Positions 23,147 through 36,929 of a stretch of 64,000 nt of DNA are shown piece by piece. How positions within the stretch are numbered: position 1 is the stretch's first letter; each line of letters starts with the position of its first letter. The notes under the pieces are model-generated. The model did no database searches. It saw only the letters and a list, made by a program, of their open reading frames with translations, and had not been told where the DNA came from. The position numbers and the translations under genes are program-made. Source of the stretch: a virus. Lineage: Duplodnaviria; Caudoviricetes. The stretch covers positions 143,930 to 207,929 of IMG/VR virus record IMGVR_UViG_3300031998_000008; one strand, written 5' to 3'.

Positions 23147-23217
23147 GGTTCATTGGGCCATCGGTTGGCCAGGCGTCTCTAAAACGCTAAAGAAGGGTTC
23201 GACTCCCTTATGAGCCG
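23147..23217 (+). tRNA. Amber suppressor tRNA, anticodon CTA
   Basis: Acceptor GGTTCAT/ATGAGCC, D stem GGCC/GGCC, anticodon GGCGT-CTCTAAA-ACGCT, T arm AAGGG-TTCGACT-CCCTT. Confidence 0.9.
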
Positions 23218-23247
23218 CTACCAATAAGATTAAACAAATACTATGAA

Positions 23248-23655
23248 ATGGGTAGAGCGTGTAAGAAAACTGCTTCAAAAAAGCAAGTTGTAGATGATGA
23301 TTATGAAGATTATGATGACTATGAAGATGATGACAAATTAAAGGATTATAGTTGTTATAATGAAGAAGATGCAAAGAACAAACATGGTATTGAATTCAAT
23401 ATTTCTGTAAATTCTAAAGACGCTGACGCTGTTCGTAATGCGCTTATTAAGGCTGGCCATGTTAAAATAGCAGACAAACTCGAAATAAAACGTGAACTTT
23501 CAATAATGCATGAAGTTATGGCTTGTGAAGGTAGTAATATCTTGCAAAAGGCCGATAATTGCATTGAAAAGTGGAGAAAAGCAAACGATTATAACGTTTC
23601 AACAGACACAAGAGAGCCAAAATATAAAATGGTACATAAGGTTCTTGCAAAATAA
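23248..23655 (+). CDS. hypothetical protein
   Basis: 135 aa ORF with acidic tract. Confidence 0.7.
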   Translation: MGRACKKTASKKQVVDDDYEDYDDYEDDDKLKDYSCYNEEDAKNKHGIEFNISVNSKDADAVRNALIKAGHVKIADKLEIKRELSIMHEVMACEGSNILQKADNCIEKWRKANDYNVSTDTREPKYKMVHKVLAK

Positions 23656-24242
23656 TGAAACATCAAGGGACTACATCAAATGACTATTGGTATGCGCCCG
23701 ATGGAGATAGATATAATTTTGTTAGAATGAAAACCTTACCAGGATACGAATCAAATGATTGTTTTGGCGATTTTGATTTATACAGAGCAAATCCTTATGT
23801 CGGGCCTGTTATTGTAAGTGATATAACATGCGATTATGCTGCACATTCACCTTATGTTGCATCACTTGACTATGATGACTATTTCTATACAAGAGAACAT
23901 TATGGTCCATGTTATAATATGACATTGACTTGCAACAATCCACTTATATTAAGACGAATTCTTGAATTGATAAGAGAATATGATTTTTCAGATTGTGGAA
24001 TTGATTATAAAAAATGTCTAAATACAACTTTAACATATGTTGGTAAAGTTGATAAAGAAGAAGATTTGCCAAAAATTGCAAAACTCGGAGAGGTTTGTAT
24101 TGCAGACAATAAAATGTTTGTTTACGGAGGTGATGGATGGGAAATGATAACTGATATGGTCCAAGAGGAAGAAGAAACTGAATGTAAAATGGAAATCTGT
24201 AAATATAAGAGAAGACATAGAGTTTTGTATGGAGCAATGTAA
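23655..24242 (+). CDS. hypothetical protein
   Basis: TAATG coupling to previous ORF. Confidence 0.7.
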   Translation: MKHQGTTSNDYWYAPDGDRYNFVRMKTLPGYESNDCFGDFDLYRANPYVGPVIVSDITCDYAAHSPYVASLDYDDYFYTREHYGPCYNMTLTCNNPLILRRILELIREYDFSDCGIDYKKCLNTTLTYVGKVDKEEDLPKIAKLGEVCIADNKMFVYGGDGWEMITDMVQEEEETECKMEICKYKRRHRVLYGAM

Positions 24243-24385
24243 ATATTCAATTGGAAAGCCTGAAATAAAAAAGGAAGAAAAAGAAGCATATGACAAAATA
24301 GTATCAGACCTTTCACATTACGTTGATGGCGAGATATTAAAAGAAATAAAAGAATACTATAATAATTATTAAAACACAATTAACT

Positions 24386-24706
24386 ATGAGTAAATTTAAC
24401 AAAATGTTGACCACAACTGGTTCTGACCTTATCGAAAAAAGAGCGCAAAACAGAACCAAGGATGCACAAGAGGCATTTAACGCTGAAAAGCAAGAAACTG
24501 AAAGAAGAATCAGAGAAATCGAAACTGAAGTTTCAGAAATGGAAGACATGGCAGTCCGTTCAACAGATGCACTTGTCGTTGGTGAAAACATCAATATGGT
24601 AGAGTGGACAAGAAAAAGAATCAACCATGAACTTGAATTGAATGACTTGAGAGTTGAACTTGAAATCATCAACAAACTCATCAAGGAATATTTTGAAGAG
24701 GATTAA
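24386..24706 (+). CDS. Coiled-coil hypothetical protein
   Basis: 106 aa, heptad-like and charged. Confidence 0.75.
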   Translation: MSKFNKMLTTTGSDLIEKRAQNRTKDAQEAFNAEKQETERRIREIETEVSEMEDMAVRSTDALVVGENINMVEWTRKRINHELELNDLRVELEIINKLIKEYFEED

Positions 24707-24710
24707 TTTG

Positions 24711-24968
24711 ATGGATTCAGAGAAAGAAATAAAGGAAAATGTGAGCCTCACGTATTTATTCCATGAGGCTCCTGAAATCCTACCACACTTGGCTTGTCAT
24801 CCAGATTACGATGGGACAATTCCATGCTTAGTGCAAAGAGAAGGTTGCAAATTCTACGAAATATTGTACTATGATTGCCATTATAAATGTTGGAATGATG
24901 CTGAAGATGATGACTATGCATATGGCAATGATATAAAATTGAAATATATACAACTTATCGAAGATTAA
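24711..24968 (+). CDS. hypothetical protein
   Basis: ATG at 24711 just after the previous stop. Confidence 0.6.
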   Translation: MDSEKEIKENVSLTYLFHEAPEILPHLACHPDYDGTIPCLVQREGCKFYEILYYDCHYKCWNDAEDDDYAYGNDIKLKYIQLIED

Positions 24969-25038
24969 AATTTTTGAAAAATATTTGCTTTTTTGAAATA
25001 AAGTTTGTATATTAGAATGTGAAACAAAGGTTTCTGAT

Positions 25039-25139
25039 GCCCGCACGATGCGAAGGCGGCAGGTAAAACTGCTAACCCTACGGAGTACAACATGCCACGT
25101 TGAAGTGGAGGTTCTCAGGTTCGAATCCTGATACGGGCA
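25039..25139 (+). ncRNA. tRNA-like element (aberrant D and anticodon region)
   Basis: GCCCGCA/TACGGGC acceptor, TCAGG-TTCGAAT-CCTGA T arm. Confidence 0.55.
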
Positions 25140-25329
25140 CAAGGGAAATGCGGTCCATGAAGCAAGCCGTATTCGTGTGTTAATGAACGAGACAACTCAT
25201 AGGTGAACACGAATTAGTTTAATAGCGAAGAAAAAACGCCCTTTTTTAAAATTTTTTTATTGGTTTTTGAATTTTTTTAAAAAAAAGTATATTTATAAGT
25301 GTAAAATATCGAAAAATTAAAAAGGATTT

Positions 25330-25562
25330 ATGCAAATGATGAGTAAACATATTAATTTGACAGAAAATACATGCGGTAATCTCAAAGGCTACGGCAAGGG
25401 CTCATCATATGCATGCTCACCAAGAGAAGATTGGCACTTTAGGAGTAAAGGGAAACGAGCGATAGGAAGTTGAAAATAAAAAGCACATAGGTTTCTAACC
25501 ACAACATATTCCCGACCTCTGAAAAGTTTCCCAATCAACAAAAACTACTCAGAGGTTTTTTT
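25330..25562 (+). promoter_or_regulatory. Putative leader peptide (47 aa) and attenuator
   Basis: ORF 25330-25473, then ACCTCTGA..TCAGAGGT-T7; GGGAAAC in the ORF complementary to GTTTCCC in the loop. Confidence 0.4.
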
Positions 25563-25598
25563 ATTGCTCAAAATAATAAAAAAATAATCCGAAAATCA

Positions 25599-25844
25599 AT
25601 GAAAGACACATTAAAACAAATCGTAACAGGTAGCGCAAAACTTGACTGCATGAGAAGTGGCGGAATCGCAGAGTATATAATTACTTCAAGCACAGGCAAC
25701 AGATACCTATTGGAGATTGACTTGTCAGACAAATTTGATTGTGGAGAAACGGCAACTTTTAGTCCATACTACGAAAAGGCTATTATATTAATGAGGTGGA
25801 TTAGAAGGGCCATGGAAAAAGAAAATTTGATAGAATTATCATAA
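25599..25844 (+). CDS. hypothetical protein
   Basis: 81 aa ORF. Confidence 0.7.
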   Translation: MKDTLKQIVTGSAKLDCMRSGGIAEYIITSSTGNRYLLEIDLSDKFDCGETATFSPYYEKAIILMRWIRRAMEKENLIELS

Positions 25845-25887
25845 TTTTGAAAGTTTGGCACGATATTTGATAAGTTTCATCACAAAT

Positions 25888-25959
25888 GGGTTTGTAGCTC
25901 AAAGGCAGAGCAACGGTCTGTTAAACCGTAGGTTGAGATTTCGAAATTCTCCATTCCCT
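25888..25959 (+). tRNA. tRNA-Asn(GTT), mismatched acceptor
   Basis: ACGGT-CTGTTAA-ACCGT. Confidence 0.65.
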
Positions 25960-25984
25960 CAATGTTAAACTAAAAATTAAAAAA

Positions 25985-26218
25985 ATGGGAGTGAGAAACA
26001 GAACATATCGGTCACACTACAAAATAGGAATAAATGGTGAATACGAAGAAAAGAAATCGTATGAGACCGAAAAAGAGGCCCTGAAAGTGGCAAGATTCTT
26101 GAATACAAGAGAAAACATAATCCACAAGATGGTAGCCTACAAATGCGTAAAATGCGGCAAGTGGCACGTTGGAAGCAACAACACCGTGCTTGATGAAGAG
26201 GAAAGAAAAAAAATATAA
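25985..26218 (+). CDS. Small zinc-ribbon-like protein
   Basis: K.SY.T..EA...AYKC.KCGKWHVG. Confidence 0.7.
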   Translation: MGVRNRTYRSHYKIGINGEYEEKKSYETEKEALKVARFLNTRENIIHKMVAYKCVKCGKWHVGSNNTVLDEEERKKI

Positions 26219-26289
26219 AAAAAAGTTGCAGAAAAATTTGTGATATTCAAAAATAGTTTGTATATTCACAATGTTCTTTGAAAACAAAT

Positions 26290-26400
26290 GGGCTGTAAAT
26301 CCGAACAAAATAGCGGAGTGACCTGCTGGTCGAAGTATTATGCATAAGAAGACCATACGGTGGCAATGCGGCCACTGGGGTTCGAGTCCCCAACAGTCCA
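26290..26400 (+). ncRNA. tRNA-like element with G3:U70/A73 acceptor
   Basis: GGGCTGT/ACAGTCC-A, TGGGG-TTCGAGT-CCCCA; no normal anticodon arm. Confidence 0.55.
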
Positions 26401-26405
26401 CATAT

Positions 26406-26476
26406 AGGTGGTTGGTGTAACGGTAACATAGCGGTCTCCAAAACCGTTGTTGAGGGTTCGAATCCTTCACCACCTG
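26406..26476 (+). tRNA. tRNA-Trp(CCA)
   Basis: GCGGT-CTCCAAA-ACCGT; full cloverleaf. Confidence 0.92.
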
Positions 26477-26594
26477 CAAATACTGAAGAGTGCTCTTCGG
26501 TACAGAGTGGATAGTTTAAAAGAAGCACTTGGAAAAACATATGGAGTCCAATCCGTAAGATACAAGTTCGAGTCTTGTTCTGCTTGCAAATAAC

Positions 26595-26675
26595 GCTCGT
26601 TAGGTCGTATAGGGGATTAGTACACTATAAGCGGGACGCTAAGAAACACTGGTTCGAAACCAGTCCAAACGAGCA
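26595..26675 (+). ncRNA. tRNA-like element
   Basis: GCTCGTT/AACGAGC with T arm ACTGG-TTCGAAA-CCAGT; no anticodon arm. Confidence 0.45.
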
Positions 26676-26680
26676 AAAAT

Positions 26681-26755
26681 GCACCTGTGGTCGAGTGGTC
26701 AAAGGCAATGGTCTGCAAAACCATACAATCGTTGGTTCGAATCCAACCAGGTGCT
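26681..26755 (+). tRNA. tRNA-Cys(GCA)
   Basis: ATGGT-CTGCAAA-ACCAT. Confidence 0.92.
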
Positions 26756-26764
26756 CAAGAATAT

Positions 26765-26864
26765 GGAGGATGTGATGTAATGGTAGGCATAGCAGGGTAG
26801 ACCTGTCGGGTGTAATAAATTGGCCATGAATAAGCCCGTGAAAGTTCGAATCTTTCCGCCTCCG
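26765..26864 (+). ncRNA. tRNA-like element (Ser/Tyr-type body, 5-nt anticodon loop)
   Basis: GGAGG/CCTCC-G, GCAGG-GTAGA-CCTGT, T arm. Confidence 0.45.
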
Positions 26865-26887
26865 CAAAGAAGTTCTTTGAAAAACAT

Positions 26888-27023
26888 TGAAGCGTGGTGA
26901 AATGGTAGACACGGCGGTAGTAAACAAAACGCTTACAGTGTATGTAAGTTAACAGCAGTTGGTATTACGTTTCAGGTAGAACCGCTGCCAGTGGCGTTGG
27001 AGGTTCGAATCCTTCCGCTTCAA
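26888..27023 (+). tRNA. tRNA-Leu-type gene with ACAGCA-module insert in the anticodon arm (anticodon uncertain, CAG or TAG)
   Basis: Leu D arm GTGAAATGGTAGACAC, long variable arm, GCGGT/ACCGC stem around a ~60 nt insert with GCTTACA/TGTAAGT-TAACAGCAG. Confidence 0.7.
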
Positions 27024-27075
27024 CAAAAAAGTTTGGCACGATTTTTGATATAGTGCTTATGTTCTTTGAAATTAT

Positions 27076-27148
27076 CGGGATGTAGTTCAGTTGGTAGAAC
27101 GCATGGTTTGGGACCACGAGGTCGCAGGTTCGAGTCCTGTCATCCCGA
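27076..27148 (+). tRNA. tRNA-Pro(TGG)
   Basis: CATGG-TTTGGGA-CCACG. Confidence 0.9.
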
Positions 27149-27262
27149 CAGAAAGATGAAGGCAACTGCATGGACATAATCAATGCCACTATGTTGAGCA
27201 CTAGAAAATATGGCAGATAAAGGTCCTTGGACAAACTCAACTACGGTTAAACTTCATCAAAT

Positions 27263-27432
27263 GGTGCTCTGGCAGATATGGTATATGCACCGGACTGAAT
27301 ACAGAATAAACTGTAAATTAAACTTCGTGTTGGCGAAGAGGAAAACGCAAGACGCTAATCGTCTAACTCATCGGTTCAAATCCGATACACGGAGCAAATC
27401 CGGCTAAGGTGGTTCGAGTCCACTGGGCACCA
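27263..27432 (+). tRNA. tRNA-Phe(GAA) with 97-nt anticodon-loop insert containing a nested tRNA-like gene
   Basis: CCGGA-CTGAA[27300-27396]AA-TCCGG; acceptor GGTGCTC/GGGCACC-A. Confidence 0.75.
27324..27394 (+). ncRNA. Nested tRNA-like element (5-nt anticodon loop CTAAT)
   Basis: TTCGTGT/ACACGGA, GCG/CGC D stem, AGACG/CGTCT, ATCGG-TTCAAAT-CCGAT. Confidence 0.7.
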
Positions 27433-27483
27433 CAGAAAATTTGATAATAAAATAGAAATTAAAATAAAAAAATAGGTAATACG

Positions 27484-27519
27484 ATGACACGATTTAAGAA
27501 ACACATAAAACGACTGTAA
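27484..27519 (+). promoter_or_regulatory. Mini-ORF MTRFKKHIKRL followed by a 10-bp hairpin
   Basis: A-rich leader then ATG; hairpin AATGATGGTA/TACCATCATT at 27522-27554. Confidence 0.4.
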
Positions 27520-27566
27520 GTAATGATGGTACACCTTGTAGTTTTACCATCATTCGGGAAGACTAT

Positions 27567-27639
27567 GGGGATGTAGCAGACACGGTTGTTGCGTGTGACT
27601 GAAAATCACAAGAAGTTGGGTCAGCACCAACCATCCCCA
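27567..27639 (+). tRNA. tRNA-Phe(GAA), atypical T loop
   Basis: TGTGA-CTGAAAA-TCACA; T loop GTCAGCA. Confidence 0.75.
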
Positions 27640-27645
27640 CAATAG

Positions 27646-27719
27646 GGGCTCATAGCATAATTGGTAGTTGCACCTGACTTTTAATCAGGGGGTTCTGGGT
27701 TCGAGTCCCAGTGGGCCCA
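27646..27719 (+). tRNA. tRNA-Lys(TTT)
   Basis: CCTGA-CTTTTAA-TCAGG. Confidence 0.92.
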
Positions 27720-27728
27720 CAAGCAAAT

Positions 27729-27804
27729 GCGCTTGTAACTCAGTGGTTTTCAGAGTACTTGACTTTTAATCAAGGAGTCGTGGGTTCGAGTCCCACCAGG
27801 CGCA
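27729..27804 (+). tRNA. tRNA-Lys(TTT)
   Basis: CTTGA-CTTTTAA-TCAAG. Confidence 0.92.
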
Positions 27805-27810
27805 CTAAAT

Positions 27811-27882
27811 GCCCCAATGGTGTAATGGATAGCACTAAAGTCCACGGAACTTTCAGTGAGGGTTCGAATCCTTCTTGGGGTA
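27811..27882 (+). tRNA. tRNA-Arg(ACG), C33
   Basis: AAAGT-CCACGGA-ACTTT. Confidence 0.85.
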
Positions 27883-27894
27883 CTTTTGACAAAC

Positions 27895-27965
27895 GTCCCT
27901 GTAGGTCAACGGTAGACTAGGTGACTCTTAATCATCGGATTTGGGTTCGAATCCCAGCGGGGGCA
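27895..27965 (+). tRNA. tRNA-Lys(CTT)
   Basis: GGTGA-CTCTTAA-TCATC. Confidence 0.9.
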
Positions 27966-28015
27966 CAAAACTTGGCACGGTTTTTGATAATGTGCAAACG
28001 TTCTTTGAAAAACAT

Positions 28016-28087
28016 GGCTCCATAGTTCAAGGGATAGAACGAGTGCCTTCTAAGCACCAAATCTAGGTTCGAGTCCTAGTGGGGCTA
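28016..28087 (+). tRNA. tRNA-Arg(TCT)
   Basis: AGTGC-CTTCTAA-GCACC. Confidence 0.9.
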
Positions 28088-28095
28088 CAAAACAT

Positions 28096-28167
28096 GCTCC
28101 TATAGTTCAAGGGAGAGAATAGAAGTTTCCTAAACTTTTGATTTAGGTTCGAGTCCTAATAGGAGTA
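28096..28167 (+). tRNA. tRNA-Arg(CCT)
   Basis: GAAGT-TTCCTAA-ACTTT. Confidence 0.9.
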
Positions 28168-28188
28168 CAAACTTAAATTAAATAGAAT

Positions 28189-28359
28189 ATGGGACTTACA
28201 TATGGCGAAGAGCCTGAACCTTGGATGAATAGCGATGCCCATAACAGGCATTGTTCACGTAAAAAAATTAAACGTGAGAGACATAAAAAACTCAGAAGAA
28301 TACCTCTTGACAAAGATGTCAGGTCAATGTTAAAAAGGTACTCAGGCTGGGAATGGTAA
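28189..28359 (+). CDS. Small basic hypothetical protein (56 aa)
   Basis: MGLTYGEEPEPW...RYSGWEW read by eye. Confidence 0.5.
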   Translation: MGLTYGEEPEPWMNSDAHNRHCSRKKIKRERHKKLRRIPLDKDVRSMLKRYSGWEW

Positions 28360-28363
28360 ATAT

Positions 28364-28435
28364 GCGGCGTTAGTACAACGGTTAGTATATCAGCTTGCCA
28401 TGCTGAAGATGTCGGTTCGATTCCGATACGCCGCT
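28364..28435 (+). tRNA. tRNA-Gly(GCC)
   Basis: TCAGC-TTGCCAT-GCTGA. Confidence 0.92.
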
Positions 28436-28557
28436 CTAAGGTAACTTTAGATTACCTGAAGGTGATATGTGGCATCCTCAAGTACAAGGGACACACCATA
28501 CTTTAGATGGTTATCGCTTTCCCTAGGGCGATTTTAAAATAGCACAGTAGGGGTGTA

Positions 28558-28628
28558 GGCGATGTAGTCTAACGGTAGAACGGGGCTCTCATAAGGCCCA
28601 TACGGAAGTTCAACTCTTCCCATCGCCA
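28558..28628 (+). tRNA. tRNA-Met/Ile2(CAT)
   Basis: GGGCT-CTCATAA-GGCCC. Confidence 0.85.
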
Positions 28629-28951
28629 CAAAAAAAAATAAAAAAAAAAGATTTGCTTTTTACAAATTCAATTTGTATATTTGCAATATCAAAAGTTCTT
28701 TGAAAGAATATATCAAGCCGCCCAGTCGGTAGTCGCAGATTACGGTTTGCGATAAAAGTGGTACTTGGAAGCTAATCCGCTCAGTCGGTAAAAGGTAAGG
28801 TGAGAGAGGTCATCTTTAAAACGTCAATTCGTAAGCCTGAAAAGTGATACTTAGCGTTTTCTCAAAAGGACAGAGTTCTTTGACATATTGTGAAATCTGA
28901 ATAAATACAACTTCTAAAGGTTGTCTGTAGTGATACACGCAACCTTCTTAC

Positions 28952-29038
28952 GGAGGCGTGGCTGAGTGGTTTAAGGCGGCGGTCTTGAAAACCGTTGGCC
29001 TCGTAAGGGGCCCGCAGGTTCGAATCCTGCCGCCTCCG
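28952..29038 (+). tRNA. tRNA-Ser(TGA)
   Basis: GCGGT-CTTGAAA-ACCGT, long variable arm. Confidence 0.93.
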
Positions 29039-29105
29039 CAAAAAAAATCTATAACGAGAATACGACATCCTGTAGTAGAGCACTTAGTATTTAAGTTATA
29101 GTAAT

Positions 29106-29233
29106 GCTGGAATCGTCTAATGGATTAGGACACGTAGCAAACAAAATGATTTCAGTCGGAAATGAAATTTAACAGCAGAATTTAGCAATGAAATTCCAAT
29201 TCCGAAATGGGGGTTCGAATCCCTCTTCCAGCT
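29106..29233 (+). tRNA. tRNA-Gly(TCC) with 55-nt ACAGCA-module insert (29135-29189)
   Basis: Removing the insert gives CGGAA-ATTCCAA-TTCCG; acceptor GCTGGAA/TTCCAGC-T. Confidence 0.8.
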
Positions 29234-29235
29234 CT

Positions 29236-29361
29236 TGCAAGTTGGTGTAGTGGCAGCACACGTAGCGACTAATTAGATTTCAGACATGGAATTAGACAGC
29301 AATATTTAAAATGCGATGAAACCATAATTCCGTGACAGAGGTTCGATTCCTCTACTTGCAA
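29236..29361 (+). tRNA. tRNA-Met/Ile2(CAT) with 55-nt ACAGCA-module insert (29263-29317)
   Basis: Removing the insert gives CGGAA-ACCATAA-TTCCG. Confidence 0.78.
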
Positions 29362-29373
29362 CTATTTAAGATT

Positions 29374-29495
29374 TGGGATGTGGTGTAACGGTAGCACACG
29401 TAGCACTTTATGATTTCAGACACGGAATTTTACAGCAATTATTTTAGCGATGAATTTGGGTTTCCGTGGTTTTGGTTCGACTCCAGACGTCCCGA
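29374..29495 (+). tRNA. tRNA-Pro(TGG) with 51-nt ACAGCA-module insert (29401-29451)
   Basis: Removing the insert gives CGGAA-TTTGGGT-TTCCG. Confidence 0.8.
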
Positions 29496-29517
29496 CATGT
29501 TTTTCAGGTTAAGGTAA

Positions 29518-30029
29518 TGAAATCCCAAGTGGGGCCCAATATATAACAGTCCTTGCTATATGGCGTGAGGATAAAGTTGGGAAAATATAGGTAAAAAATG
29601 CATTCTTACGCCCTAATGGTTGATATATTGTGGTATCAATGGTGTGTTTTTATGTGTGTGACTACGCAAATCACACAGATTTCAATCTAATGAAATACCA
29701 AGTGGGTCCTGATATAGCATATTCACAAAAAATGGTTTGTGAAGAAGTCAGGAAAATAGTGGTGAAGATGATTATTCAGTTAATCCTTAACGTTGGCATA
29801 TCGTGGAGCCAACTGTTCGTCTTTGTGTGCGTGACTACGCAAGTCGCACATATTTCGTCATAATGAAACCCCAAGTGGGACCCAATATACAATAGCCTTT
29901 GCTATATGGCGTAAAGGTAAAGTTGGGGTAATATAGGTAAAAATGCTTGGTTGCGCCCTAATGGTTGATATATCGTGGTATCAACAGTGTGTTTTTATGT
30001 GTGTGACTCCGCAAATCACACAGGTTTCA
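29518..30029 (+). ncRNA. Three tandem copies of a ~167-nt structured RNA (29518-29684, 29691-29857, 29864-30029)
   Basis: 173-nt period; closing stems TGAAATC/GATTTCA, TGAAATA/TATTTCG, TGAAACC/GGTTTCA; conserved CCAAGTGGG and GTGACT(A/C)CGCAA. Confidence 0.8.
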
Positions 30030-30116
30030 TTTTTTTTTGGTACACGTTAAAATGTTTTTTTTTATTCGCCTTTACTAATTTTTAAATTTCATTATATTTA
30101 TATAAAAATATTTATA

Positions 30117-30686
30117 ATGAAAAAGAATTTTAGAACAAAAGAAGAATATATTGAGGCTGCAAAGATGGCTCATAGTGTTGCTGAAATGTGCAGATTACTT
30201 GGTAGAAATCCATGTGGCGCTGGATATTATATTATGAAAAAGAAAATCAAAGAATATGATATAGATATAAGTCATTTTCTTGGGCAAGGATGGAATAAGG
30301 GTTTAAAGATGAACCCTAATGAGGGAAAAATTAAAAAATTAGAAGAAATATTAGTAGAAAATTCCACATATGCTAATTGTAATTGTTTAAAAAAAAGGTT
30401 ATTAAAAGAAGGTGTTAAAGAATATAGGTGTGAGTGTTGTGGGTTGACTGAGTGGAACGGTAAAGAAATTCCTTTAGAAATACATCACATAAATGGTGTT
30501 AGAAATGATAACAGGATTGAAAATCTTCAATTATTATGCCCAAATTGCCATGCTCAAACAGATAATTATTGTTCTAAAAATATGAAGAATGGCGGAGTGG
30601 TGGAATTGGTAGACACGACTGTCCCAAAAGCAGTTGCCGAGAGGCGTGTGGGTCCGACTCCCACCTCCGCTACAGAACTTAAATAA
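30117..30686 (+). CDS. HNH homing endonuclease
   Basis: CECCG..EWNG..LEIHHING..NDNRIENLQLLCPNCH. Confidence 0.9.
   Translation: MKKNFRTKEEYIEAAKMAHSVAEMCRLLGRNPCGAGYYIMKKKIKEYDIDISHFLGQGWNKGLKMNPNEGKIKKLEEILVENSTYANCNCLKKRLLKEGVKEYRCECCGLTEWNGKEIPLEIHHINGVRNDNRIENLQLLCPNCHAQTDNYCSKNMKNGGVVELVDTTVPKAVAERRVGPTPTSATELK
30591..30672 (+). tRNA. tRNA-Leu(CAA), C33, T loop TCCGA; lies inside the HNH ORF 3' end
   Basis: ACTGT-CCCAAAA-GCAGT; Leu D and variable arms. Confidence 0.85.
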
Positions 30687-30704
30687 TAATTAAAAATTAA
30701 CAAA

Positions 30705-31340
30705 ATGAAGAAAGTATTTATTTTATTGATGGCAATTTCTTTGATGTTTTCATTCAATTCTTGCGATTGGTTTAACAAGAACAAGGATAATGAGAAAAAA
30801 GAAATTATCGTGGAAAACGTAGTTAAAGCAGACAGAGACTACATGACAGAAAATTATGGTAATACCTACGTATGGTATGAAACACAAATTTCTTTGAATG
30901 ACTATCTTGATGAAGAATGCGATGGCTCATTCTCAGAGATTGTAGATGTGTTCCAAGTTATCACTACAACTGACAGTGTAACATTTGATACCAAAGTAAT
31001 TAAGATGTACCATGTTGCTGATTCTTCATACATTGAAGAAATTGAAGGTTTCTGGGTTGAAGACATGAATATGAACGATGAAATCATTTCAGTCACTTAC
31101 AAACAAGCATTCCAACTTATTAATGAAGTAAACTTCCCAAAACCACATTCAAAGAATTGTGTTTTGAGAAAAGAAGTTGGCCCAATTGAAGCTAATCCTC
31201 AGTATATCTTTGGCAACATTGAATCACAATTGTATGTTGATGCATTGACAGGTGATGTAACTGATGAAAGCCCAAGTTTCTGTGACGAAGTTATTGAAAA
31301 CGACAGCATCGAAGATGTAAACACTCAATTTGGTGAGTAG
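30705..31340 (+). CDS. Putative lipoprotein
   Basis: MKK + hydrophobic stretch + FNSC lipobox; acidic mature part. Confidence 0.75.
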   Translation: MKKVFILLMAISLMFSFNSCDWFNKNKDNEKKEIIVENVVKADRDYMTENYGNTYVWYETQISLNDYLDEECDGSFSEIVDVFQVITTTDSVTFDTKVIKMYHVADSSYIEEIEGFWVEDMNMNDEIISVTYKQAFQLINEVNFPKPHSKNCVLRKEVGPIEANPQYIFGNIESQLYVDALTGDVTDESPSFCDEVIENDSIEDVNTQFGE

Positions 31341-31372
31341 CCGTAATTAAATAAAAAAAGATATAAAAATTA

Positions 31373-31439
31373 GAAAACCTAACAGCAACTTTTAGTAATA
31401 ATCAGGACTTTCATTCCCGACAATAAACTAATGGTTTTC
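31373..31439 (+). ncRNA. ACAGCA-stem RNA displaying a Glu(TTC) anticodon arm
   Basis: GAAAACC-TAACAGCAA ... CAGGA-CTTTCAT-TCCCG ... GGTTTTC. Confidence 0.7.
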
Positions 31440-31458
31440 GTTTTTTAGAACCCATATA

Positions 31459-31529
31459 AGTAATCCTACAGCAACATTTCAACAAAACCTTTGATTGCAA
31501 TTCAAAACCATGTTAACAAACGGATTACT
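31459..31529 (+). ncRNA. ACAGCA-stem RNA displaying a Cys(GCA) anticodon arm
   Basis: AGTAATCC-TACAGCAA ... TTTGA-TTGCAAT-TCAAA ... GGATTACT. Confidence 0.75.
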
Positions 31530-31535
31530 GTAAAT

Positions 31536-31607
31536 GCCTCCTTAGTATAACGGTTATTATATCGGCTTTGTAACCCGAAGATGGCAGTCCGATTCTGCCA
31601 GGGGGCT
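31536..31607 (+). tRNA. tRNA-Thr(TGT), T loop TCCGA
   Basis: TCGGC-TTTGTAA-CCCGA. Confidence 0.82.
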
Positions 31608-31729
31608 CAAAACATTCGAGGGATTGAGGCTTGGTTTCCTATTCTGACCTTTTGACGAATTGTGTTGGAATACGAATAAGGAGCAAGAGGCTTGCATGCA
31701 CCTGGCTTGCTGTGTAGAGTGTTTTTAAT

Positions 31730-31813
31730 GGGAGCGTAACCGGTAATTGGTAGCCGCACGGACTGTAAATCCGTTCCCTTTTGGGACTGGTGGTTCGAGT
31801 CCACCCGCTCCCA
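31730..31813 (+). tRNA. tRNA-Tyr(GTA)
   Basis: ACGGA-CTGTAAA-TCCGT. Confidence 0.92.
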
Positions 31814-31905
31814 CAACAAGCACAAGTCTTTAGGCCCCCACACACATGGCAGCATAAGACTATATAAGTGGGAATACAAGCAAGAATTCTAAAGTGTTTG
31901 TTAAT

Positions 31906-31976
31906 GCGTTGTTAGTACAACGGCAGTATATTGGCTTCCCAAGCCGAAGATGTCAGTTCGATTCTGATACAGCGCT
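31906..31976 (+). tRNA. tRNA-Gly(CCC)
   Basis: TTGGC-TTCCCAA-GCCGA. Confidence 0.9.
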
Positions 31977-31984
31977 CATGTTTT

Positions 31985-32066
31985 CGGCTTGTGGTGGAAC
32001 TGGTAGACACGCATGTCTTAGGAACATGTGCCGAAAGGCGTGTGGGTTCGACTCCCACCTTGCCGA
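31985..32066 (+). tRNA. tRNA-Leu(TAG)
   Basis: CATGT-CTTAGGA-ACATG; two T-T mismatches in acceptor. Confidence 0.85.
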
Positions 32067-32192
32067 CTGAAAATATATCAACGAAGCTTTGACTAATGAA
32101 GCCATGGATTTTACTGTGAGAAGTCCTATTGTGGACCGTTGATTTTTTAGATTATACTTTTTAGTTGATTATACTTTTTAGTTGAAAATATA

Positions 32193-32283
32193 AGGAAACT
32201 TGCAGCAAATTTAATTAGGTTCAATAAATTTAACTTCCAATTAGATTTTAGATGGTTCGAGTCCATTACAAACAAGGTTTCCT
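32193..32283 (+). ncRNA. GCAGCA-stem RNA with Gly(TCC) anticodon arm and T arm
   Basis: AGGAAACTT-GCAGCAA ... TTTAA-CTTCCAA-TTAGA ... GATGG-TTCGAGT-CCATT ... AGGTTTCCT. Confidence 0.75.
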
Positions 32284-32289
32284 GAGTTT

Positions 32290-32363
32290 GGGAGAGTAGC
32301 GTAGCTGGTTAGCGCAACGGACTGTTAATCCGTGGGTCGTGGGTTCGATTCCCACCTCTCCCG
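32290..32363 (+). tRNA. tRNA-Asn(GTT)
   Basis: ACGGA-CTGTTAA-TCCGT. Confidence 0.92.
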
Positions 32364-32368
32364 CACAA

Positions 32369-32511
32369 AGTAAGCTTGCAGCAATAATTCAGTTTATTTT
32401 CGCAGATACCGAAGAGATGTCGGTTCGATTCCGGCCCCCCATACAAATTTAACTTTCTTATCATATGGGGGTAGTTTAATGGTAGAATATTACAAACAAC
32501 AAAGGCTTACT
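32369..32511 (+). ncRNA. Circularly permuted tRNA mimic (GAT loop) on a GCAGCA stem
   Basis: Order: stem, anticodon arm, T arm, CCCCCAT, linker, ATGGGGG, D arm, stem (AGTAAGCT/GGCTTACT). Confidence 0.8.
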
Positions 32512-32527
32512 GTCAATACAAAGCAAA

Positions 32528-32620
32528 AGAAATCTTACAGCAAATATCAACTTGATTAGTTCGATTCTAATATTAGCCGCCATAAACAGGCTGATTGCAA
32601 AGGTGCAGTTAATGATTTCT
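32528..32620 (+). ncRNA. Permuted tRNA mimic (T arm, closed acceptor, D-like arm; no anticodon) on an ACAGCA stem
   Basis: AGAAATC/GATTTCT; ATTAG-TTCGATT-CTAAT; ATTAGCC-GCCA..GGCTGAT; TGCA/TGCA. Confidence 0.75.
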
Positions 32621-32635
32621 GAATGCTTTTTTTAT

Positions 32636-32709
32636 AGGGGTATGGTTGAATTGGTTACAAGTACCGGCCTGTCACGCCGGTGGTGCGGGTTCGAGTCCCG
32701 TTATCCCTG
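32636..32709 (+). tRNA. tRNA-Asp(GTC)
   Basis: CCGGC-CTGTCAC-GCCGG. Confidence 0.92.
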
Positions 32710-32719
32710 CAATAGATAA

Positions 32720-32849
32720 AGGAATTCAACAGCAACTTTTAATTTCGTTTGACTGTAAATCAAAAGGTTATTGGTTCGAATCCAGTTGTTGCATTAGAGA
32801 AATCGAAGGCGACATAGCTCAATTGGTAGAGTAAGAAAAAGTGATTCCT
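32720..32849 (+). ncRNA. Circularly permuted tRNA-Tyr(GTA) mimic on an ACAGCA stem
   Basis: AGGAATT/GATTCCT; TTTGA-CTGTAAA-TCAAA; T arm; TGTTGC..GCGACA; TAGCTCAATTGGTAGAGT. Confidence 0.82.
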
Positions 32850-32866
32850 GTGCATCTATTTTTTAT

Positions 32867-32940
32867 GGGCCTGTGGTTGAATGGTTTACAATGCCGCCCT
32901 GTCACGGCGTGTGGTGCGGGTTCGAATCCCGTCAGGCCCG
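32867..32940 (+). tRNA. tRNA-Asp(GTC)
   Basis: CGCC-CTGTCAC-GGCG. Confidence 0.9.
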
Positions 32941-32951
32941 CATAGATTGAA

Positions 32952-33106
32952 AGAAATTTAACAGCAAGAGACTTTATGGTAAACACATTTCTCTGCAAAA
33001 GAAAGATTGTTGGTTCGAGTCCAACTGTAGCATTGAAGACGGAGCCCTCATTTAGCGAGGTGCGAGTTTTTGGCTGCATAGTGAAATTGGAAAAAGAATG
33101 ATTTCT
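32952..33106 (+). ncRNA. Circularly permuted tRNA-Cys(GCA) mimic on an ACAGCA stem (break in the D loop)
   Basis: AGAAATT/GATTTCT; TGGTAAACAC; TTTCT-CTGCAAA-AGAAA; T arm; TGTAGC..GCTGCA-TAGTG. Confidence 0.8.
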
Positions 33107-33234
33107 GTAAATCTATAACATAGGAAACAAAGGACACACGTACCTTAAACAAGTACGAAAAGTTAGTGCAAGCCGAATAAAGTCGCCAAGCGTCTCAGGT
33201 CGGTAGCATGATAGTGAAATGTAAATTTCTTAAT

Positions 33235-33307
33235 GGGGAGTTCATTTAGCGGTTTAGGATGCAGGTTCGACAGACCTGTCACTATGGTTCGATTCCATAA
33301 CACCCCA
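33235..33307 (+). tRNA. tRNA-Val(GAC), C33
   Basis: CAGGT-TCGACAG-ACCTG. Confidence 0.7.
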
Positions 33308-33310
33308 CAA

Positions 33311-33661
33311 TCGGATGTTGTTGATATTCAAAGAAAAGTCCGTAAGACGAGGGTTCGACTCCCTCCGGGTCCACCATATTGGGTGCGCCATGTTGAGTAC
33401 CAACCATACTAGTTATACGGTTCTTATGATTCATGGTACAATACCAAGTAATTTGAAAAACTTGGTTCGGGTTTAAAATTGGGGTTCAACTCCCTGGCAT
33501 CCAACAACTTTCAAACATGGGCCCGCTTGGATTTGATTGCGAATGAATACAATGGAAGGAGATATTCGAGAAGCCAATAAATGGCAATGAAAATTATGCA
33601 TATGCAGTTGCAGCCTAAGCTAGGTTAGCAAATGCAGGTTGGCAGCGAACCAAATCGCTGC
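33311..33661 (+). ncRNA. ssrA: Two-piece (circularly permuted) tmRNA
   Basis: Acceptor piece ends T arm-CGGGTCC-ACCA at 33376; coding piece starts GGGCCCG..GGATTTGA at 33519 (G3:U70); tag GNENYAYAVAA-stop at 33583-33618. Confidence 0.88.
33380..33504 (+). ncRNA. tRNA-like element in the tmRNA intervening segment
   Basis: TGGGTGC/GCATCCA-A, TGGGG-TTCAACT-CCCTG, ACCAAGT/ACTTGGT hairpin. Confidence 0.55.
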
Positions 33662-33665
33662 AAAT

Positions 33666-33738
33666 GGCGGGTTCGTATAATAGGTTAGTACGCCACCCTC
33701 TCAAGGTGGAAATAGAGGTTCGAACCCACTACTCGCTA
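33666..33738 (+). tRNA. tRNA-Glu(CTC)
   Basis: CCACC-CTCTCAA-GGTGG. Confidence 0.82.
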
Positions 33739-33748
33739 CAAAATACAT

Positions 33749-33820
33749 CGTGCCATCGAATAATGGTTAGTTCGCTGCCCTTTCACGGCAGTAATACGGG
33801 TTCGAGTCCCGTTGGCACGA
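33749..33820 (+). tRNA. tRNA-Glu(TTC)
   Basis: CTGCC-CTTTCAC-GGCAG. Confidence 0.92.
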
Positions 33821-33894
33821 CTCTCGCCGAGTTAGTTTCTAATCCGGAGCGCTTAACGTACACACGTTAGTAAGTAGGAAACAAGGCGAGTTTT

Positions 33895-33969
33895 CGGCTA
33901 GTGGTGTAATTGGTTAGCACGTCACCCTGATAAGGTGAAAGTTTGGTGGTTCGAGTCCACCCTAGCCGA
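33895..33969 (+). tRNA. tRNA-Ile(GAT)
   Basis: TCACC-CTGATAA-GGTGA. Confidence 0.92.
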
Positions 33970-34167
33970 CAAAATATGCAAAAATTTGTGAAATAATTTA
34001 TTTTTTTGTATATTTATAAAACAAGAAAGTAGTATTCCTGTCAAGGGCGAAACAATTGATGGGTTAGAGCCATACCGTTAGAAACACGGTCATAATGTTA
34101 GGGTACAAGTCGGGTAAAACTGACACCAGTCGGAATGACAAGTTAAATTATGGTTCACTTTCTAAAT

Positions 34168-34242
34168 GGGGCGTTAGCTCAGTCTGGCTAGAGCGGTAGC
34201 TTTGCAAGCTTCAGGTCGTGGGTTCGAATCCCACACGCTCCA
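34168..34242 (+). tRNA. tRNA-Ala(TGC)
   Basis: GGGGCGT/ACGCTCC (G3:U70), loop TTTGCAA. Confidence 0.9.
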
Positions 34243-34608
34243 CAAAACATATTCAGGTATAGAAGACGCAAATTCTAAGAGACTGCTCTGTGTTTTGGAC
34301 GATATATGTGTACCAAACCAATGTTCAAGTTGCGTATTGAACTGAGGGCATGTATAATCGAAAAAAAGTGTCTATGGTGTAAGTGGTGAGCACACCCAAT
34401 GGAGGGAGGTACGGTTCGAGTCCGTGGATTACTTCAATTTTTTTCTTATTATTTAAAAGGATGAAGTTGGTAGCGCCACAACGTAATGTAACAAGTCCCT
34501 GAAATGGTCATTTCAAACTGTGTTCCTTATCGTAGTTAAGGGAAAGTCTTTTACGGTTTCTATAATGCGAAAGCCAAAATGTATCAAAGGAAGCAAACCG
34601 TTTTATTT

Positions 34609-34735
34609 GGAGGTATAGTTTAGTGGTAGAATGACGTAAAATGAAAATAGCATTTTGGTCATTTAAAAATGTTAACAGCATATGAGTTCAATGCCTTTCC
34701 CGCCGTTGATGTAGGTTCGATTCCTGCTGCCTCCG
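34609..34735 (+). tRNA. tRNA (TTC, Glu) with 56-nt ACAGCA-module insert (34637-34692)
   Basis: Removing the insert gives ACGGC-CTTTCCC-GCCGT. Confidence 0.75.
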
Positions 34736-34889
34736 CTATGAGATACCAATAGGTTTACTTAATCATATGTCAGAAGTACAATGACGTTAGAGTATGGGAT
34801 TGCCGGAAGCTAACGGTGTGATACATAACTTCGCACAATTGGTAACAATTCATGTTAGTTGCAAATGACATGATGCTCATTTTTTTTAT

Positions 34890-35021
34890 TGGCCAGTAGC
34901 TCAGTTGGCAGAGCAACGGAATGAAAAGAAAACGCATTTTGGCCTAAAGATGTTAACAGCAATGAAAAATTTTCGACTGTTAATCCGTGGGCCGCAGGTT
35001 CGAGTCCTGCCTGACCAGCCA
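34890..35021 (+). tRNA. tRNA-Asn(GTT) with 56-nt ACAGCA-module insert (34920-34975)
   Basis: Removing the insert gives ACGGA-CTGTTAA-TCCGT; encoded GCCA end. Confidence 0.82.
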
Positions 35022-35131
35022 ATATGTCTTGTGTTGGTGCGTAACCATCGGGCACTAAATGTTGAAACAAACAGGATTAAGTTCCTCGAAAGCCATTAAT
35101 CAGTTCAACTCTGATGGGACATATTTTTTAT

Positions 35132-35207
35132 GCATGTATGAAGCAGATTGGATGTGCTACCAGCGTGATAAGGCTGGGCTATGTTGGTTCGAATCCAACT
35201 GCATGCG
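35132..35207 (+). tRNA. Atypical tRNA-Ile(GAT)-like, 8-nt anticodon loop
   Basis: CCAGC-GTGATAAG-GCTGG; GCATGTA/TGCATGC. Confidence 0.55.
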
Positions 35208-35248
35208 CAAATTACCTGAACACATAGGGTGATTTATCTGTACAGATT

Positions 35249-35402
35249 GGGTGTGTAGACTGAATGGGAAAATTGGTATCAAAAGTACATTCGGATATGA
35301 CTGAAATGCAGATAGGTCATATTGACGGGATGCAACTTGAGAAGATTTGAAGATGCGCCCGGTAAGCTCCGGGAGATACGGGTTCGAATCCCGTCACACT
35401 TA
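35249..35402 (+). ncRNA. tRNA-like element with a large D-arm insertion
   Basis: GGGTGTG/CACACTT, CCCGG-TAAGCT-CCGGG, ACGGG-TTCGAAT-CCCGT. Confidence 0.5.
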
Positions 35403-35407
35403 CAATA

Positions 35408-35474
35408 GGAAAACATACAGCAACTTTAATTCAGTTACAATCTTTTAAATTGTGGGACTAAAATTTCGTTTTCC
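35408..35474 (+). ncRNA. ACAGCA-stem RNA displaying a Lys(TTT) anticodon arm
   Basis: GGAAAAC-ATACAGCAA ... ACAAT-CTTTTAA-ATTGT ... GTTTTCC. Confidence 0.78.
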
Positions 35475-35561
35475 GTTTAATATATGGTTGGCAAAGATGA
35501 GTTAGCTAGCAAACATTACCCCAAAAGTTATTCATACTTAGGTTATAACGCCAATCATTAT

Positions 35562-35643
35562 GGGGAAGTGGTGGAACTGGTAGACACGTATGCCCAAGGA
35601 GCATATGCCGAAAGGCGTGTGGGTTCGACTCCCACCTTCCCTA
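35562..35643 (+). tRNA. tRNA-Leu(AAG), C33
   Basis: TATGC-CCAAGGA-GCATA; Leu D and variable arms. Confidence 0.85.
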
Positions 35644-35793
35644 CTTAATATGCCCTGTAGTCAAAGTTGTAGAACAACTATTACGTATGTCGTTGTTTCT
35701 GTAATTTCTGGTGATTTATTTGACCGTACTTTGTTAATACATGTTAATACGAAGTATGAAGGTTCGATTCCTTTACTGAGGCGCAAGGAGAAA

Positions 35794-35864
35794 GCCTTGT
35801 TAGTTTAGTGGTAGAATGATACCCTCGTAAAGTATAGACGATGGTTCGATTCCATCACTTGGCT
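35794..35864 (+). tRNA. tRNA-Thr(CGT)
   Basis: ATACC-CTCGTAA-AGTAT. Confidence 0.72.
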
Positions 35865-35896
35865 CAATATTTATTAAAGAACAAAAAAGATTATTT

Positions 35897-36157
35897 ATGA
35901 AAAAGTTATTTTTAACAATTACTATTGTTTTTGCATTGCTTACAAGTTGCATTGCACAAAATGGAGGAGGATTATTCCAAAGGGGTGAAAATCCTGAAAG
36001 TGAAAAAACCCAAGTTATTTATAACAGAGAAGGGGGATTTCCTGGTCTTCCGCCACACGGAGAAGAAGGCGACCAACCTGCACCTGTAGGCGCAGGAACT
36101 GTTTTACTTATTGGCTTTGGTGCTGCTTATGCAATGTACAAGAAAAACAAAAAGTAA
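35897..36157 (+). CDS. Small secreted protein with PID-CTERM-like C-terminal sorting signal
   Basis: Signal peptide; PVGAGTVLLIGFGAAYAMYKKNKK. Confidence 0.7.
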   Translation: MKKLFLTITIVFALLTSCIAQNGGGLFQRGENPESEKTQVIYNREGGFPGLPPHGEEGDQPAPVGAGTVLLIGFGAAYAMYKKNKK

Positions 36158-36455
36158 AGAAAACTCAACGCTGATGAGTATAAATAAGACAGCCGTACAG
36201 CCATCGTGAACGGTAGCAGTACTGGACTAAACTGTTAAAATAAAGGCCCTAAGGGAGAGGTAACGTTACTCCTTAAAACTAGCGAATTTCAAGTAGATTC
36301 ATGGGTTATCGAAAGGCTTTAGAAATGTTAAGTAAAAAGACCTTATGCCAGCGATTGACACTCTACACGGGGAGTGTAGGCCACGAAAAATGTGGTGGTT
36401 GAAAAAGTACCAGGGTTCGACTCCTATATCAATCAAGGAAATCCATTTTTCAGAT

Positions 36456-36533
36456 GGTGTCTATAGTGTTAGTGGTCGAGCACGCAAGTTTGTGGCACTT
36501 GTAGCCTCAGTTCGAATCTGAGTAGACACCCCA
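36456..36533 (+). tRNA. tRNA-His(GTG) with G-1
   Basis: CAAGT-TTGTGGC-ACTTG; C73-CCA encoded. Confidence 0.92.
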
Positions 36534-36534
36534 A

Positions 36535-36838: not shown

Positions 36839-36843
36839 TTTAT

Positions 36844-36929
36844 GGAGATGTGGCCGAGTGGTTTAAGGCGGCTCTCTGCTAAGGAGTTGGGCCCATAAAG
36901 CCCCGCAGGTTCGAATCCTGCCATCTCCG
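36844..36929 (+). tRNA. tRNA-Ser(GCT)
   Basis: GCTCT-CTGCTAA-GGAGT, long variable arm. Confidence 0.92.

Follow-up and report, generated by a model that had tools for sequence, protein, structure and literature searches.

A putative Lak-type intron shaped like a tRNA splits a tRNA-Phe(GAA) gene in a huge phage unrelated to Lak

The tRNA genes of Lak megaphages carry introns that have been called 'enigmatic', one of which 'may encode a tRNA' (Devoto et al. 2019, PMC6784885). According to Table S6 of that study, the Lak Tyr, Phe, Thr, and Gly introns follow a common layout—i.e. one base, a UACA-type hairpin closed by the loop A(A/G)UAAA, an AAAUUAAA-type linker, and then an element that resembles a tRNA. 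In the same table, the inner elements begin with C (mostly CU) and end with G (mostly AG), and an unpaired C then leads into exon 2. Of four Lak introns listed in that table (PMC6784885 Table S6), three have no match in Rfam and the fourth is matched as a tRNA only. A 2026 survey likewise reports that introns of jumbo-phage tRNAs 'could encode another tRNA' (PMC13037316). Group I introns also sit in the anticodon loops of bacterial and phage tRNAs, e.g. in cyanobacterial tRNA-Leu(UAA) (review PMC3984707).

Here, we analyze a window of 64 kb—i.e. the final 64 kb of a 207,929-bp IMG/VR virus record (33% GC; CheckV completeness 56%)—and coordinates without a contig name refer to this window. Its + strand holds a dense tRNA array at 23.1–37.2 kb, with tRNA genes spanning 23147–37132. 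ARAGORN finds 34 tRNAs and a permuted tmRNA in this array, with Rfam in agreement. Seven interrupted tRNA genes are detected by intron-aware ARAGORN, and an eighth is detected by Rfam. Because proteins of its clade are found on contigs of 367–410 kb, we regard the source as a huge phage. A megablast search of the whole array against 50,697 phage records returned no match.

The array contains several other features. A suppressor-type tRNA with the anticodon CUA is located at 23147–23218. Under the standard code, the two strands of the 208-kb record together contain ~175 kb of ORFs of at least 150 codons; when TAG is read as sense this sum rises by only ~6%, and TAG terminates 10 of 151 long ORFs. 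The permuted tmRNA is of the two-piece type (33314–33618; Rfam tmRNA_permuted, 63.4 bits), encodes the tag GNENYAYAVAA, and is conserved in a 395-kb relative of the phage, L045. An ORF of 211 aa inside the array (30705–31340) has 458 homologues, many of them on phage contigs of 290–410 kb, and matches no Pfam or PHROG family. A contig of 367 kb encodes an identical 211-aa protein. In one relative, 1.3 to 3.5 kb separate the homologue of this ORF from an RtcB gene that is split, and in another, ~7 kb separate it from a protein that matches TROVE (Ro60-like) faintly. The small ORFs of the array receive no functional assignment from PHROGs or Pfam.

Positions 27263–27432 hold a tRNA-Phe(GAA) gene whose anticodon loop is split just 3′ of the anticodon by 97 nt. 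The initial annotation had described this arrangement, and it is borne out by the sequence, ARAGORN, Rfam, and the predicted fold. Exon 1 (27263..27298, + strand) comprises the acceptor 5′ strand, the D arm, CCGGA, and the loop bases CUGA, and is delimited by ARAGORN and by an intronless orthologue in L045. Exon 2 (27396..27433, + strand) comprises AAA, UCCGG, the variable loop, the T arm, the acceptor 3′ strand, A73, and an encoded C74. The boundary between exon 1 and the intron lies in a run of A and is ambiguous by one base. All seven acceptor pairs form between 27263–27269 and 27425–27431, including one G.U, and the anticodon stem CCGGA (27290–27294) pairs with TCCGG (27399–27403) at 5/5 positions. 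The T arm (27408–27424) is canonical, and the discriminator A73 is located at 27432.

The intron itself (27299..27395, + strand) is 100% identical in G002:C259, a contig of a Bacteroidales MAG bin, and absent from the L045 orthologue. Sequence and predicted fold place a 5′ hairpin, UACAG/CUGUA with the A-rich loop AAUAAA, at 27300..27315 (+ strand). An A-rich linker, AAUUAAA, follows at 27316..27322 (+ strand); when the A just before it is included, the sequence is AAAUUAAA, which is the leader that family members have in common (alignments A3 and A6). The remaining 73 nt (27323..27395, + strand) form an inner tRNA-like element, which is supported by Rfam tRNA, an MFE cloverleaf, scores of 85.7 bits with R1 and 52.2 bits with R2, and covariation. 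This element has an 8-bp acceptor (27323–27330 with 27387–27394), a D arm with GG, a stem AGACG/CGUCU closed by the 5-nt loop CUAAU (27355–27359), a T arm (27370–27386) with the loop UUCAAAU, and an unpaired C at 27395. Against the Rfam tRNA model it scores 41.3 bits (E = 4e-7), with 3 anticodon-loop positions missing. In ViennaRNA, the 97-nt intron alone folds into the hairpin plus the cloverleaf (z = −3.2), and the spliced 73-mer folds into a perfect cloverleaf that ARAGORN labels tRNA-Phe(GAA). As such, two further statements of the initial annotation stand: the insert is a TACAG/CTGTA hairpin plus a cloverleaf with the 5-nt loop CTAAT (seen in the sequence, Rfam, and ViennaRNA), and its excision gives CCGGA-CTGAAAA-TCCGG, which agrees with the spliced fold and with the loop CTGAAAA in L045.

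Standard tRNA finders miss or mislabel such nested genes. For example, ARAGORN in its default mode reports the inner element only, as 'Leu(TAA)', and with introns allowed it reports a single gene at 27263–27433 with a 97-nt intron, labeled Cys(GCA). The Cys label places the boundary one base to the left and is rejected on the basis of A73, the intronless orthologue, and the splice rule derived from Lak (below). Specifically, the array tRNA-Cys carries U73, whereas the outer nested gene carries A73, and the intronless L045 orthologue together with the intronless Lak-C1 allele fix the boundary, which makes the outer gene Phe and not Cys. With its GAA anticodon, class I cloverleaf, and A73, it has the features of a tRNA-Phe.

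A second, uninterrupted tRNA-Phe(GAA) is found at 27567..27640 (+ strand; 49.2 bits), outside the nested unit. The intact Phe gene noted there initially is thus real, though its T loop is unusual (GUCAGCA, with G54 and G58). Because this non-canonical loop is conserved in L045 (6732–6807), we regard it as a selected variant and not as decay. The presence of a second Phe(GAA) gene in the genome means that the nested copy is not strictly needed.

Pattern scans and covariance models place the intron in a family of eight nested members, located in Phe, Met, Gly, Thr, Phe, Tyr/Asn, Pro, and Arg genes, plus one stand-alone member. Those recovered by these scans include Met(CAT) on a metagenome contig of 26% GC (L009), Pro(UGG) on a Lak-like contig (L002), and Arg(CCU) in L045; the Lak intron loci were taken from GenBank Lak-A1. 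The stand-alone member (L004:1899–1993, − strand; IMGVR_UViG_3300043436_004480) scores 71 bits and lies outside any tRNA gene. It retains the AAAUUAAA leader, the 13-bp stack, and the C-AA tail, and is located ~0.9 kb upstream of a permuted tmRNA gene. A strict pattern of hairpin, leader, and T loop retrieved the Lak Gly intron and one chance match only, and the leader pattern of the Lak Tyr, Phe, and Thr introns is absent from the Lak record G001. Among 185,579 prokaryote species genomes, a relaxed hairpin-plus-leader pattern found none, and another pattern found one real match (the contig binned with a Bacteroidales MAG) and two chance ones. Neither the exact 31-nt junction pattern nor the neighboring 195-aa protein has a match in IMG/VR.

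The nested members share a 5′ N-WUA start, a hairpin, and a linker, and every member has a 13-bp stack followed by C. Specifically, after one base the intron reads (A/U)UA in 8/8 nested members, and a 5′ module is predicted in all eight (a 4–6-bp hairpin with a 6–7-nt A-rich loop, then the A-rich linker), with stem sequences that differ from one member to the next. The leader varies at only one position among members (alignments A3 and A6). The insert always lies directly 3′ of the anticodon, and its excision rebuilds a 7-nt loop in all eight nested members, which represent seven tRNA species. Base 37 is then the expected one each time (A in seven members, G in Pro).

The acceptor/T stack always measures 13 bp, as either 8+5 or 7+6, and both its first pair (C-G) and the T-stem pair G53-C61 are invariant across the family. 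In two alignments that take in leader, mimic, and tail (6 and 7 distinct sequences), these 13 pairs are 100% and 98.9% paired, with compensatory changes at 9 and 10 of 13 pairs, respectively; sliding the partner by one to three columns as a control gives 25–56% pairing. R2, a leave-one-out covariance model, scores the studied copy at 52.2 bits (E = 3e-8), making it the top match in the window, and gives ordinary tRNAs of the window no more than 32.5 bits. Chance is excluded by the conservation of the unit in relatives and by the covariation across the family, and we consider it nearly certain that the insert is real, selected, and of an intron type.

The anticodon region follows a different course. 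It consists of a 5-nt loop here and of a tetraloop on a 9-bp stem in Lak Thr; the arm is absent from the inner elements of L009, Lak Gly, and Lak Phe. A decoding tRNA would have a 7-nt loop with U33 and a purine at 37, whereas the inner element has the 5-nt loop CUAAU. Because only the acceptor/T half is conserved while the anticodon part is variable or absent, the inner element mimics the top half and the elbow of a tRNA and does not decode. The earlier idea of a tRNA serving as an intron therefore holds for the tRNA shape of the intron, but not for an inner tRNA able to decode, given the 5-nt loop and the members without the arm.

Other tRNA-like sequences were encountered during these scans. 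One of them, a tRNA-like element located directly upstream of tRNA-Cys (26588–26676), has a canonical T arm, a terminal helix of ~10 bp, and AGCAAAA as its tail. The family model gives this element 31 bits, and the string GACGCUAA is common to it and the nested inner element. A YrlA/Y-RNA identity was rejected, as Rfam gives only a 23-bit sub-threshold match, located elsewhere (32766–32832). For the published intron-bearing tRNA-Tyr(GTA) of Lak-A1 (L005:8185–8348, − strand), the splice rule gives the loop CUGUUAA. Bacterial-type tRNA-Tyr has a long variable arm, and the variable loop of this gene is short, so it may be a tRNA-Asn(GUU).

The splice rule derives from the Thr genes of two Lak phages. 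Lak-A1 and Lak-C1 differ at this gene by a 114-nt intron only, the DNA being otherwise identical. This pair places the 5′ splice site one base ahead of the UACA hairpin, and the 3′ splice site directly after the unpaired C behind the 13-bp stack. Applied to the studied gene, the rule gives CUGA|A-UACAG...GGAGC|AAA, and hence the mature loop CUGAAAA.

In the standard 7-bp register, the end of the inner element reads G73-C74|AA. Among the uninterrupted tRNA genes of the array, 33 of 34 read N73-C74, mostly followed by AA, and in none of the 34 does a complete CCA end follow N73 directly. The 3′ splice site therefore has the same position and context as the 3′ boundaries of the array tRNAs, which is our strongest indication that a generic tRNA 3′ endonuclease makes it. 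For CCA-less tRNA genes, this endonuclease is normally RNase Z. In control runs, the RNase Z, RNase E/G, and RtcB families are all present in Bacteroides thetaiotaomicron. We also observe that the N73-C-A pattern occurs in Lak tRNA genes, and that the base before +1 in array tRNA genes is usually U, preceded by A.

The initial annotation proposed that processing of the inner tRNA would split the outer one into halves that need a ligase. The 3′ side agrees with this, since the 3′ splice site coincides with the inner 3′ processing position. The 5′ side does not, because end cuts alone leave the 24-nt hairpin and linker on exon 1, and a further cut or a trimming step is needed. That is, the predicted RNase P site does not match the 5′ splice site. 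The stack of 13 bp, rather than the canonical 12 bp, could also shift the positions at which RNase P and RNase Z cut.

Group I self-splicers are, to our knowledge, the only introns known in bacterial and phage tRNA anticodon loops, and this speaks for a small self-splicing or self-cleaving ribozyme in the studied gene. However, 97 nt is far below the group I size (typically >200 nt), and no group I, hammerhead, twister, pistol, or other ribozyme is matched in Rfam (E up to 10; up to 5). The intron also has no U.G pair at its 5′ splice site and no terminal G, its ends being A/U...C. We consider a ribozyme intron extremely improbable. Since the intron has neither a ribozyme core nor such a match in Rfam, its removal would have to depend on proteins.

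Comparisons with related phages show that the nested unit is conserved, and that the same gene also exists without it. The 170-nt unit is 100% identical on C259, although the 211-aa array ORF shows only 56% protein identity between that contig and the studied phage, and neighboring array DNA is 68–98% identical. Two closer relatives (L052 and L053) also retain it. By contrast, L045 has an uninterrupted tRNA-Phe(GAA) at the same array position (L045:6523–6598). It shares the D arm of the studied gene, its anticodon stem is compensated (CTGGA/TCCAG), and its loop reads CTGAAAA. The reverse holds for tRNA-Arg(CCU), i.e. the L045 gene bears the same intron type, whereas its orthologue in the window (28096–28168) is uninterrupted. 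Together with the conserved unit, such presence and absence alleles are what one would expect if a mobile intron resided in working genes. The comparison with related phages thus favors the intron, and the insertion scar that had been offered as an alternative is disfavored, as the interrupted gene is intact in relatives and exact intron-plus and intron-minus alleles exist. Judged from these sequences, the nested unit is not a scar.

A related explanation is that the gene is never spliced. Here, a mobile mimic cassette would have inactivated the tRNA gene, the released mimic would be the product (e.g. a decoy for tRNA-targeting defenses or a Y-RNA-like effector), the outer gene would be transcribed and offer a safe place to land, and decoding would be left to the second Phe gene. 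The second Phe(GAA) gene, the stand-alone mimic of L004 with its identical leader and C-AA tail, the endonuclease genes that adjoin nested genes in relatives, and the intronless L045 allele are all compatible with this. Against it, the exons are flawless, with stems intact and identical across phages that differ by up to 44% in a neighboring protein, and all eight nested members rebuild a 7-nt loop with the expected base 37. Moreover, the C259 array has a canonical Cys but no other Phe, and the 27567-type Phe gene is absent from both this contig and the rest of its bin. Finally, the Lak-A1 exons are identical to the intronless Lak-C1 gene. We find an unspliced cassette quite improbable, and the intron is probably removed from RNA to give tRNA-Phe.

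The array also contains a second, unrelated class of introns (38–60 nt), with homologues in C259 and L045. These interrupt tRNA genes at 26888–27024, 29106–29496 (three genes), 34609–34736, and 34890–35021. They have paired ends, an internal loop with UUAACAGCA, and a distal hairpin capped by G..A. Rather than 3′ of the anticodon, they are inserted inside or beside the anticodon stem (e.g. between nt 28 and 29). The second-class motif also flanks tRNA fragments. Homology between this class (helix plus ACAGCA) and the 5′ UACAG hairpin of the nested intron was considered and is unconvincing, as the layout and insertion sites differ. Excision of two of these introns in silico yields canonical tRNA-Gly(TCC) and tRNA-Asn(GTT). 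Given at least seven further interrupted tRNA genes in the same array as the nested Phe gene, two of which give canonical tRNAs in silico, the sequences suggest that RNA joining takes place in infected cells.

How the halves could be cut and joined was approached through the enzymes encoded by the phage and its relatives. No RtcB, Rnl1, Rnl2, or PNK-type kinase gene is found in the 208-kb record, which at 56% completeness makes this a weak negative. The same record (56% complete) has no gene for EndA (PF01974), RNase Z, a CCA-adding enzyme, or a TROVE protein. The search for RtcB or Rnl genes that the proposed ligation calls for is thus negative in this fragment, and finds Rnl2-family ligases in Lak and RtcB in a distant relative. 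Specifically, a complete Lak genome has 4 to 5 matches to the RNA-ligase family PF09414 (Rnl2 family) and no RtcB. In the distant relative, of 380 kb, a LAGLIDADG gene interrupts the RtcB gene, which is located 1.3 to 3.5 kb from the homologue of the array ORF.

These enzymes bear on another explanation, i.e. that a dedicated endonuclease of the phage or host, leaving 2′,3′-cyclic phosphate and 5′-OH ends, would splice the intron together with a phage or host RtcB. Such an enzyme would recognize the three-way junction or measure its distance from the body of the outer tRNA, and the mimic would have another role, e.g. in folding or mobility or as a released by-product. Both splice sites lie at fixed positions of the outer anticodon loop in all members, and tRNA-end enzymes could not explain the second intron class of the array. 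RtcB is also available, both near the array-ORF homologue of the 380-kb relative and in Bacteroides thetaiotaomicron. However, this explanation accounts neither for the conservation of the acceptor/T half nor for a 3′ site directly after the first unpaired base. The 208-kb record has neither RtcB nor EndA, the complete Lak genome has no RtcB but Rnl-type ligases instead, and inspection of the junctions reveals no bulge-helix-bulge motif. We regard a dedicated endonuclease with RtcB as unlikely.

The reading that we prefer, to which we give about even credence, is that of a functional tRNA-Phe(GAA) gene with a mobile, protein-dependent Lak-type intron in which the mimic acts as a processing handle. 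We infer splicing, and each enzymatic step that follows, from the sequence comparisons above. The mimic would keep only those features that tRNA end-processing enzymes read—i.e. the 13-bp stack, the T loop, and the GG of the D loop. The 3′ cut, after the unpaired C, would be made by the endonuclease that produces the CCA-less tRNA 3′ ends of the phage, most likely the host RNase Z, and would generate the 5′ end of exon 2. RNase P would cut at the 5′ end of the mimic, before C27323. The hairpin and linker would then be removed from exon 1 by a further cut at the conserved N|WUA, for which an RNase E/G-type enzyme or a phage nuclease are candidates. RNase E/G is named here only as a suggestion, because the N|WUA site resembles its AU-rich sites flanked by stem-loops. 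Lastly, an RNA ligase would close the anticodon loop to CUGAAAA. RtcB needs 2′,3′-cyclic phosphate and 5′-OH ends, unlike those that RNase P and RNase Z produce.

Confidence in this route differs among its parts. That tRNA end-processing enzymes make at least one of the cuts may well be the case and may equally well not be, and the full route as proposed is doubtful. The released mimic could receive a CCA end, and it might have a function of its own, e.g. as a decoy for tRNA-targeting defenses.

At the DNA level, the intron would move among tRNA genes, possibly aided by adjoining free-standing homing endonuclease genes. In C259, a 290-aa DUF559/Vsr-like ORF ends 3 nt upstream of the nested unit (L027:8793–9665, − strand). 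In L045, an HNH ORF (7860–8480) overlaps the start of the nested Arg gene, and in L052 (2971–3489) and L053 (2147–2665) an HNH ORF is located just downstream of the nested unit. The studied window has no endonuclease gene beside the nested copy. Collaborative homing between an intron and a neighboring endonuclease occurs in T4-like phages and cyanophages, and the association seen here fits this process, but it is only suggestive, as these arrays often contain such endonuclease genes. An IS200/IS605-type DNA element was rejected, as the insertions have no common fixed target tetranucleotide. Taken as a whole, these observations could reflect a third route of tRNA splicing, in which a mobile mimic borrows RNase P and RNase Z, a ligase reseals the tRNA, and homing endonucleases aid its spread among unrelated huge phages of gut Bacteroidales; we put this forward tentatively, as somewhat less probable than the alternative that it is not so.

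Bacteria and phages have been thought limited to self-splicing tRNA introns, and the studied intron resembles group I introns in its anticodon-loop site, its mobility, and its association with homing endonucleases. It differs from them in being 97 nt long, without a ribozyme core, and without an Rfam family match as an intron. The tRNA introns of archaea and eukaryotes (EndA/Sen with RtcB or Trl1) are similarly located near 37/38, and they are spliced by proteins and depend on a ligase, as is predicted here. By inspection, however, the studied gene has no BHB (3-4-3) and no 4-bp helix pairing the junctions, its intron is a tRNA mimic, and no EndA gene is found in the 208-kb record (56% complete).

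Non-decoding tRNA mimics that recruit RNase P and RNase Z, so that longer RNAs are cut at fixed positions, are known from MALAT1/mascRNA, the tRNA punctuation of mitochondria, and plant t-elements. In those cases the flanking RNAs are not rejoined, whereas the RNAs on either side of the studied mimic are halves of one tRNA. Resealing of a cut anticodon loop occurs in phage T4, where Pnkp and Rnl1 repair the loop cut by PrrC. That process repairs damage, whereas the insert studied here is encoded, and neither Rnl1 nor Pnkp is found in the 208-kb record (56% complete). If true, a protein-dependent intron made of a tRNA mimic would amount to a novel logic of splicing in which RNase P and RNase Z serve as the endonucleases.

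The closest resemblance is to the introns of other large phages. The inserts reported in jumbo-phage tRNAs, which 'could encode another tRNA' (PMC13037316), would likewise be shaped like tRNAs and located in the anticodon loop. With the Lak introns, the studied copy shares the insertion point 3′ of the anticodon, the order of parts, and precise intron-plus and intron-minus alleles. By contrast, its phage belongs to a different lineage (~370–410 kb, 33% GC) without nucleotide similarity to Lak, and its inner core is a full cloverleaf, whereas most Lak copies are reduced to D-like and T arms. Judged by these features, the studied intron belongs to the Lak-type kind, already described, in a lineage unrelated to Lak. 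The study that described the Lak introns gives no family definition, splice rule, or mechanism for them (PMC6784885). The copy analyzed here links two unrelated phage groups and supplies natural intron-plus and intron-minus alleles in close relatives, and it yields a simple splice rule, a covariance model, a sharper definition of the family, and a mechanism that can be tested. If that mechanism is true, the 'enigmatic' introns of Lak would be explained as well.
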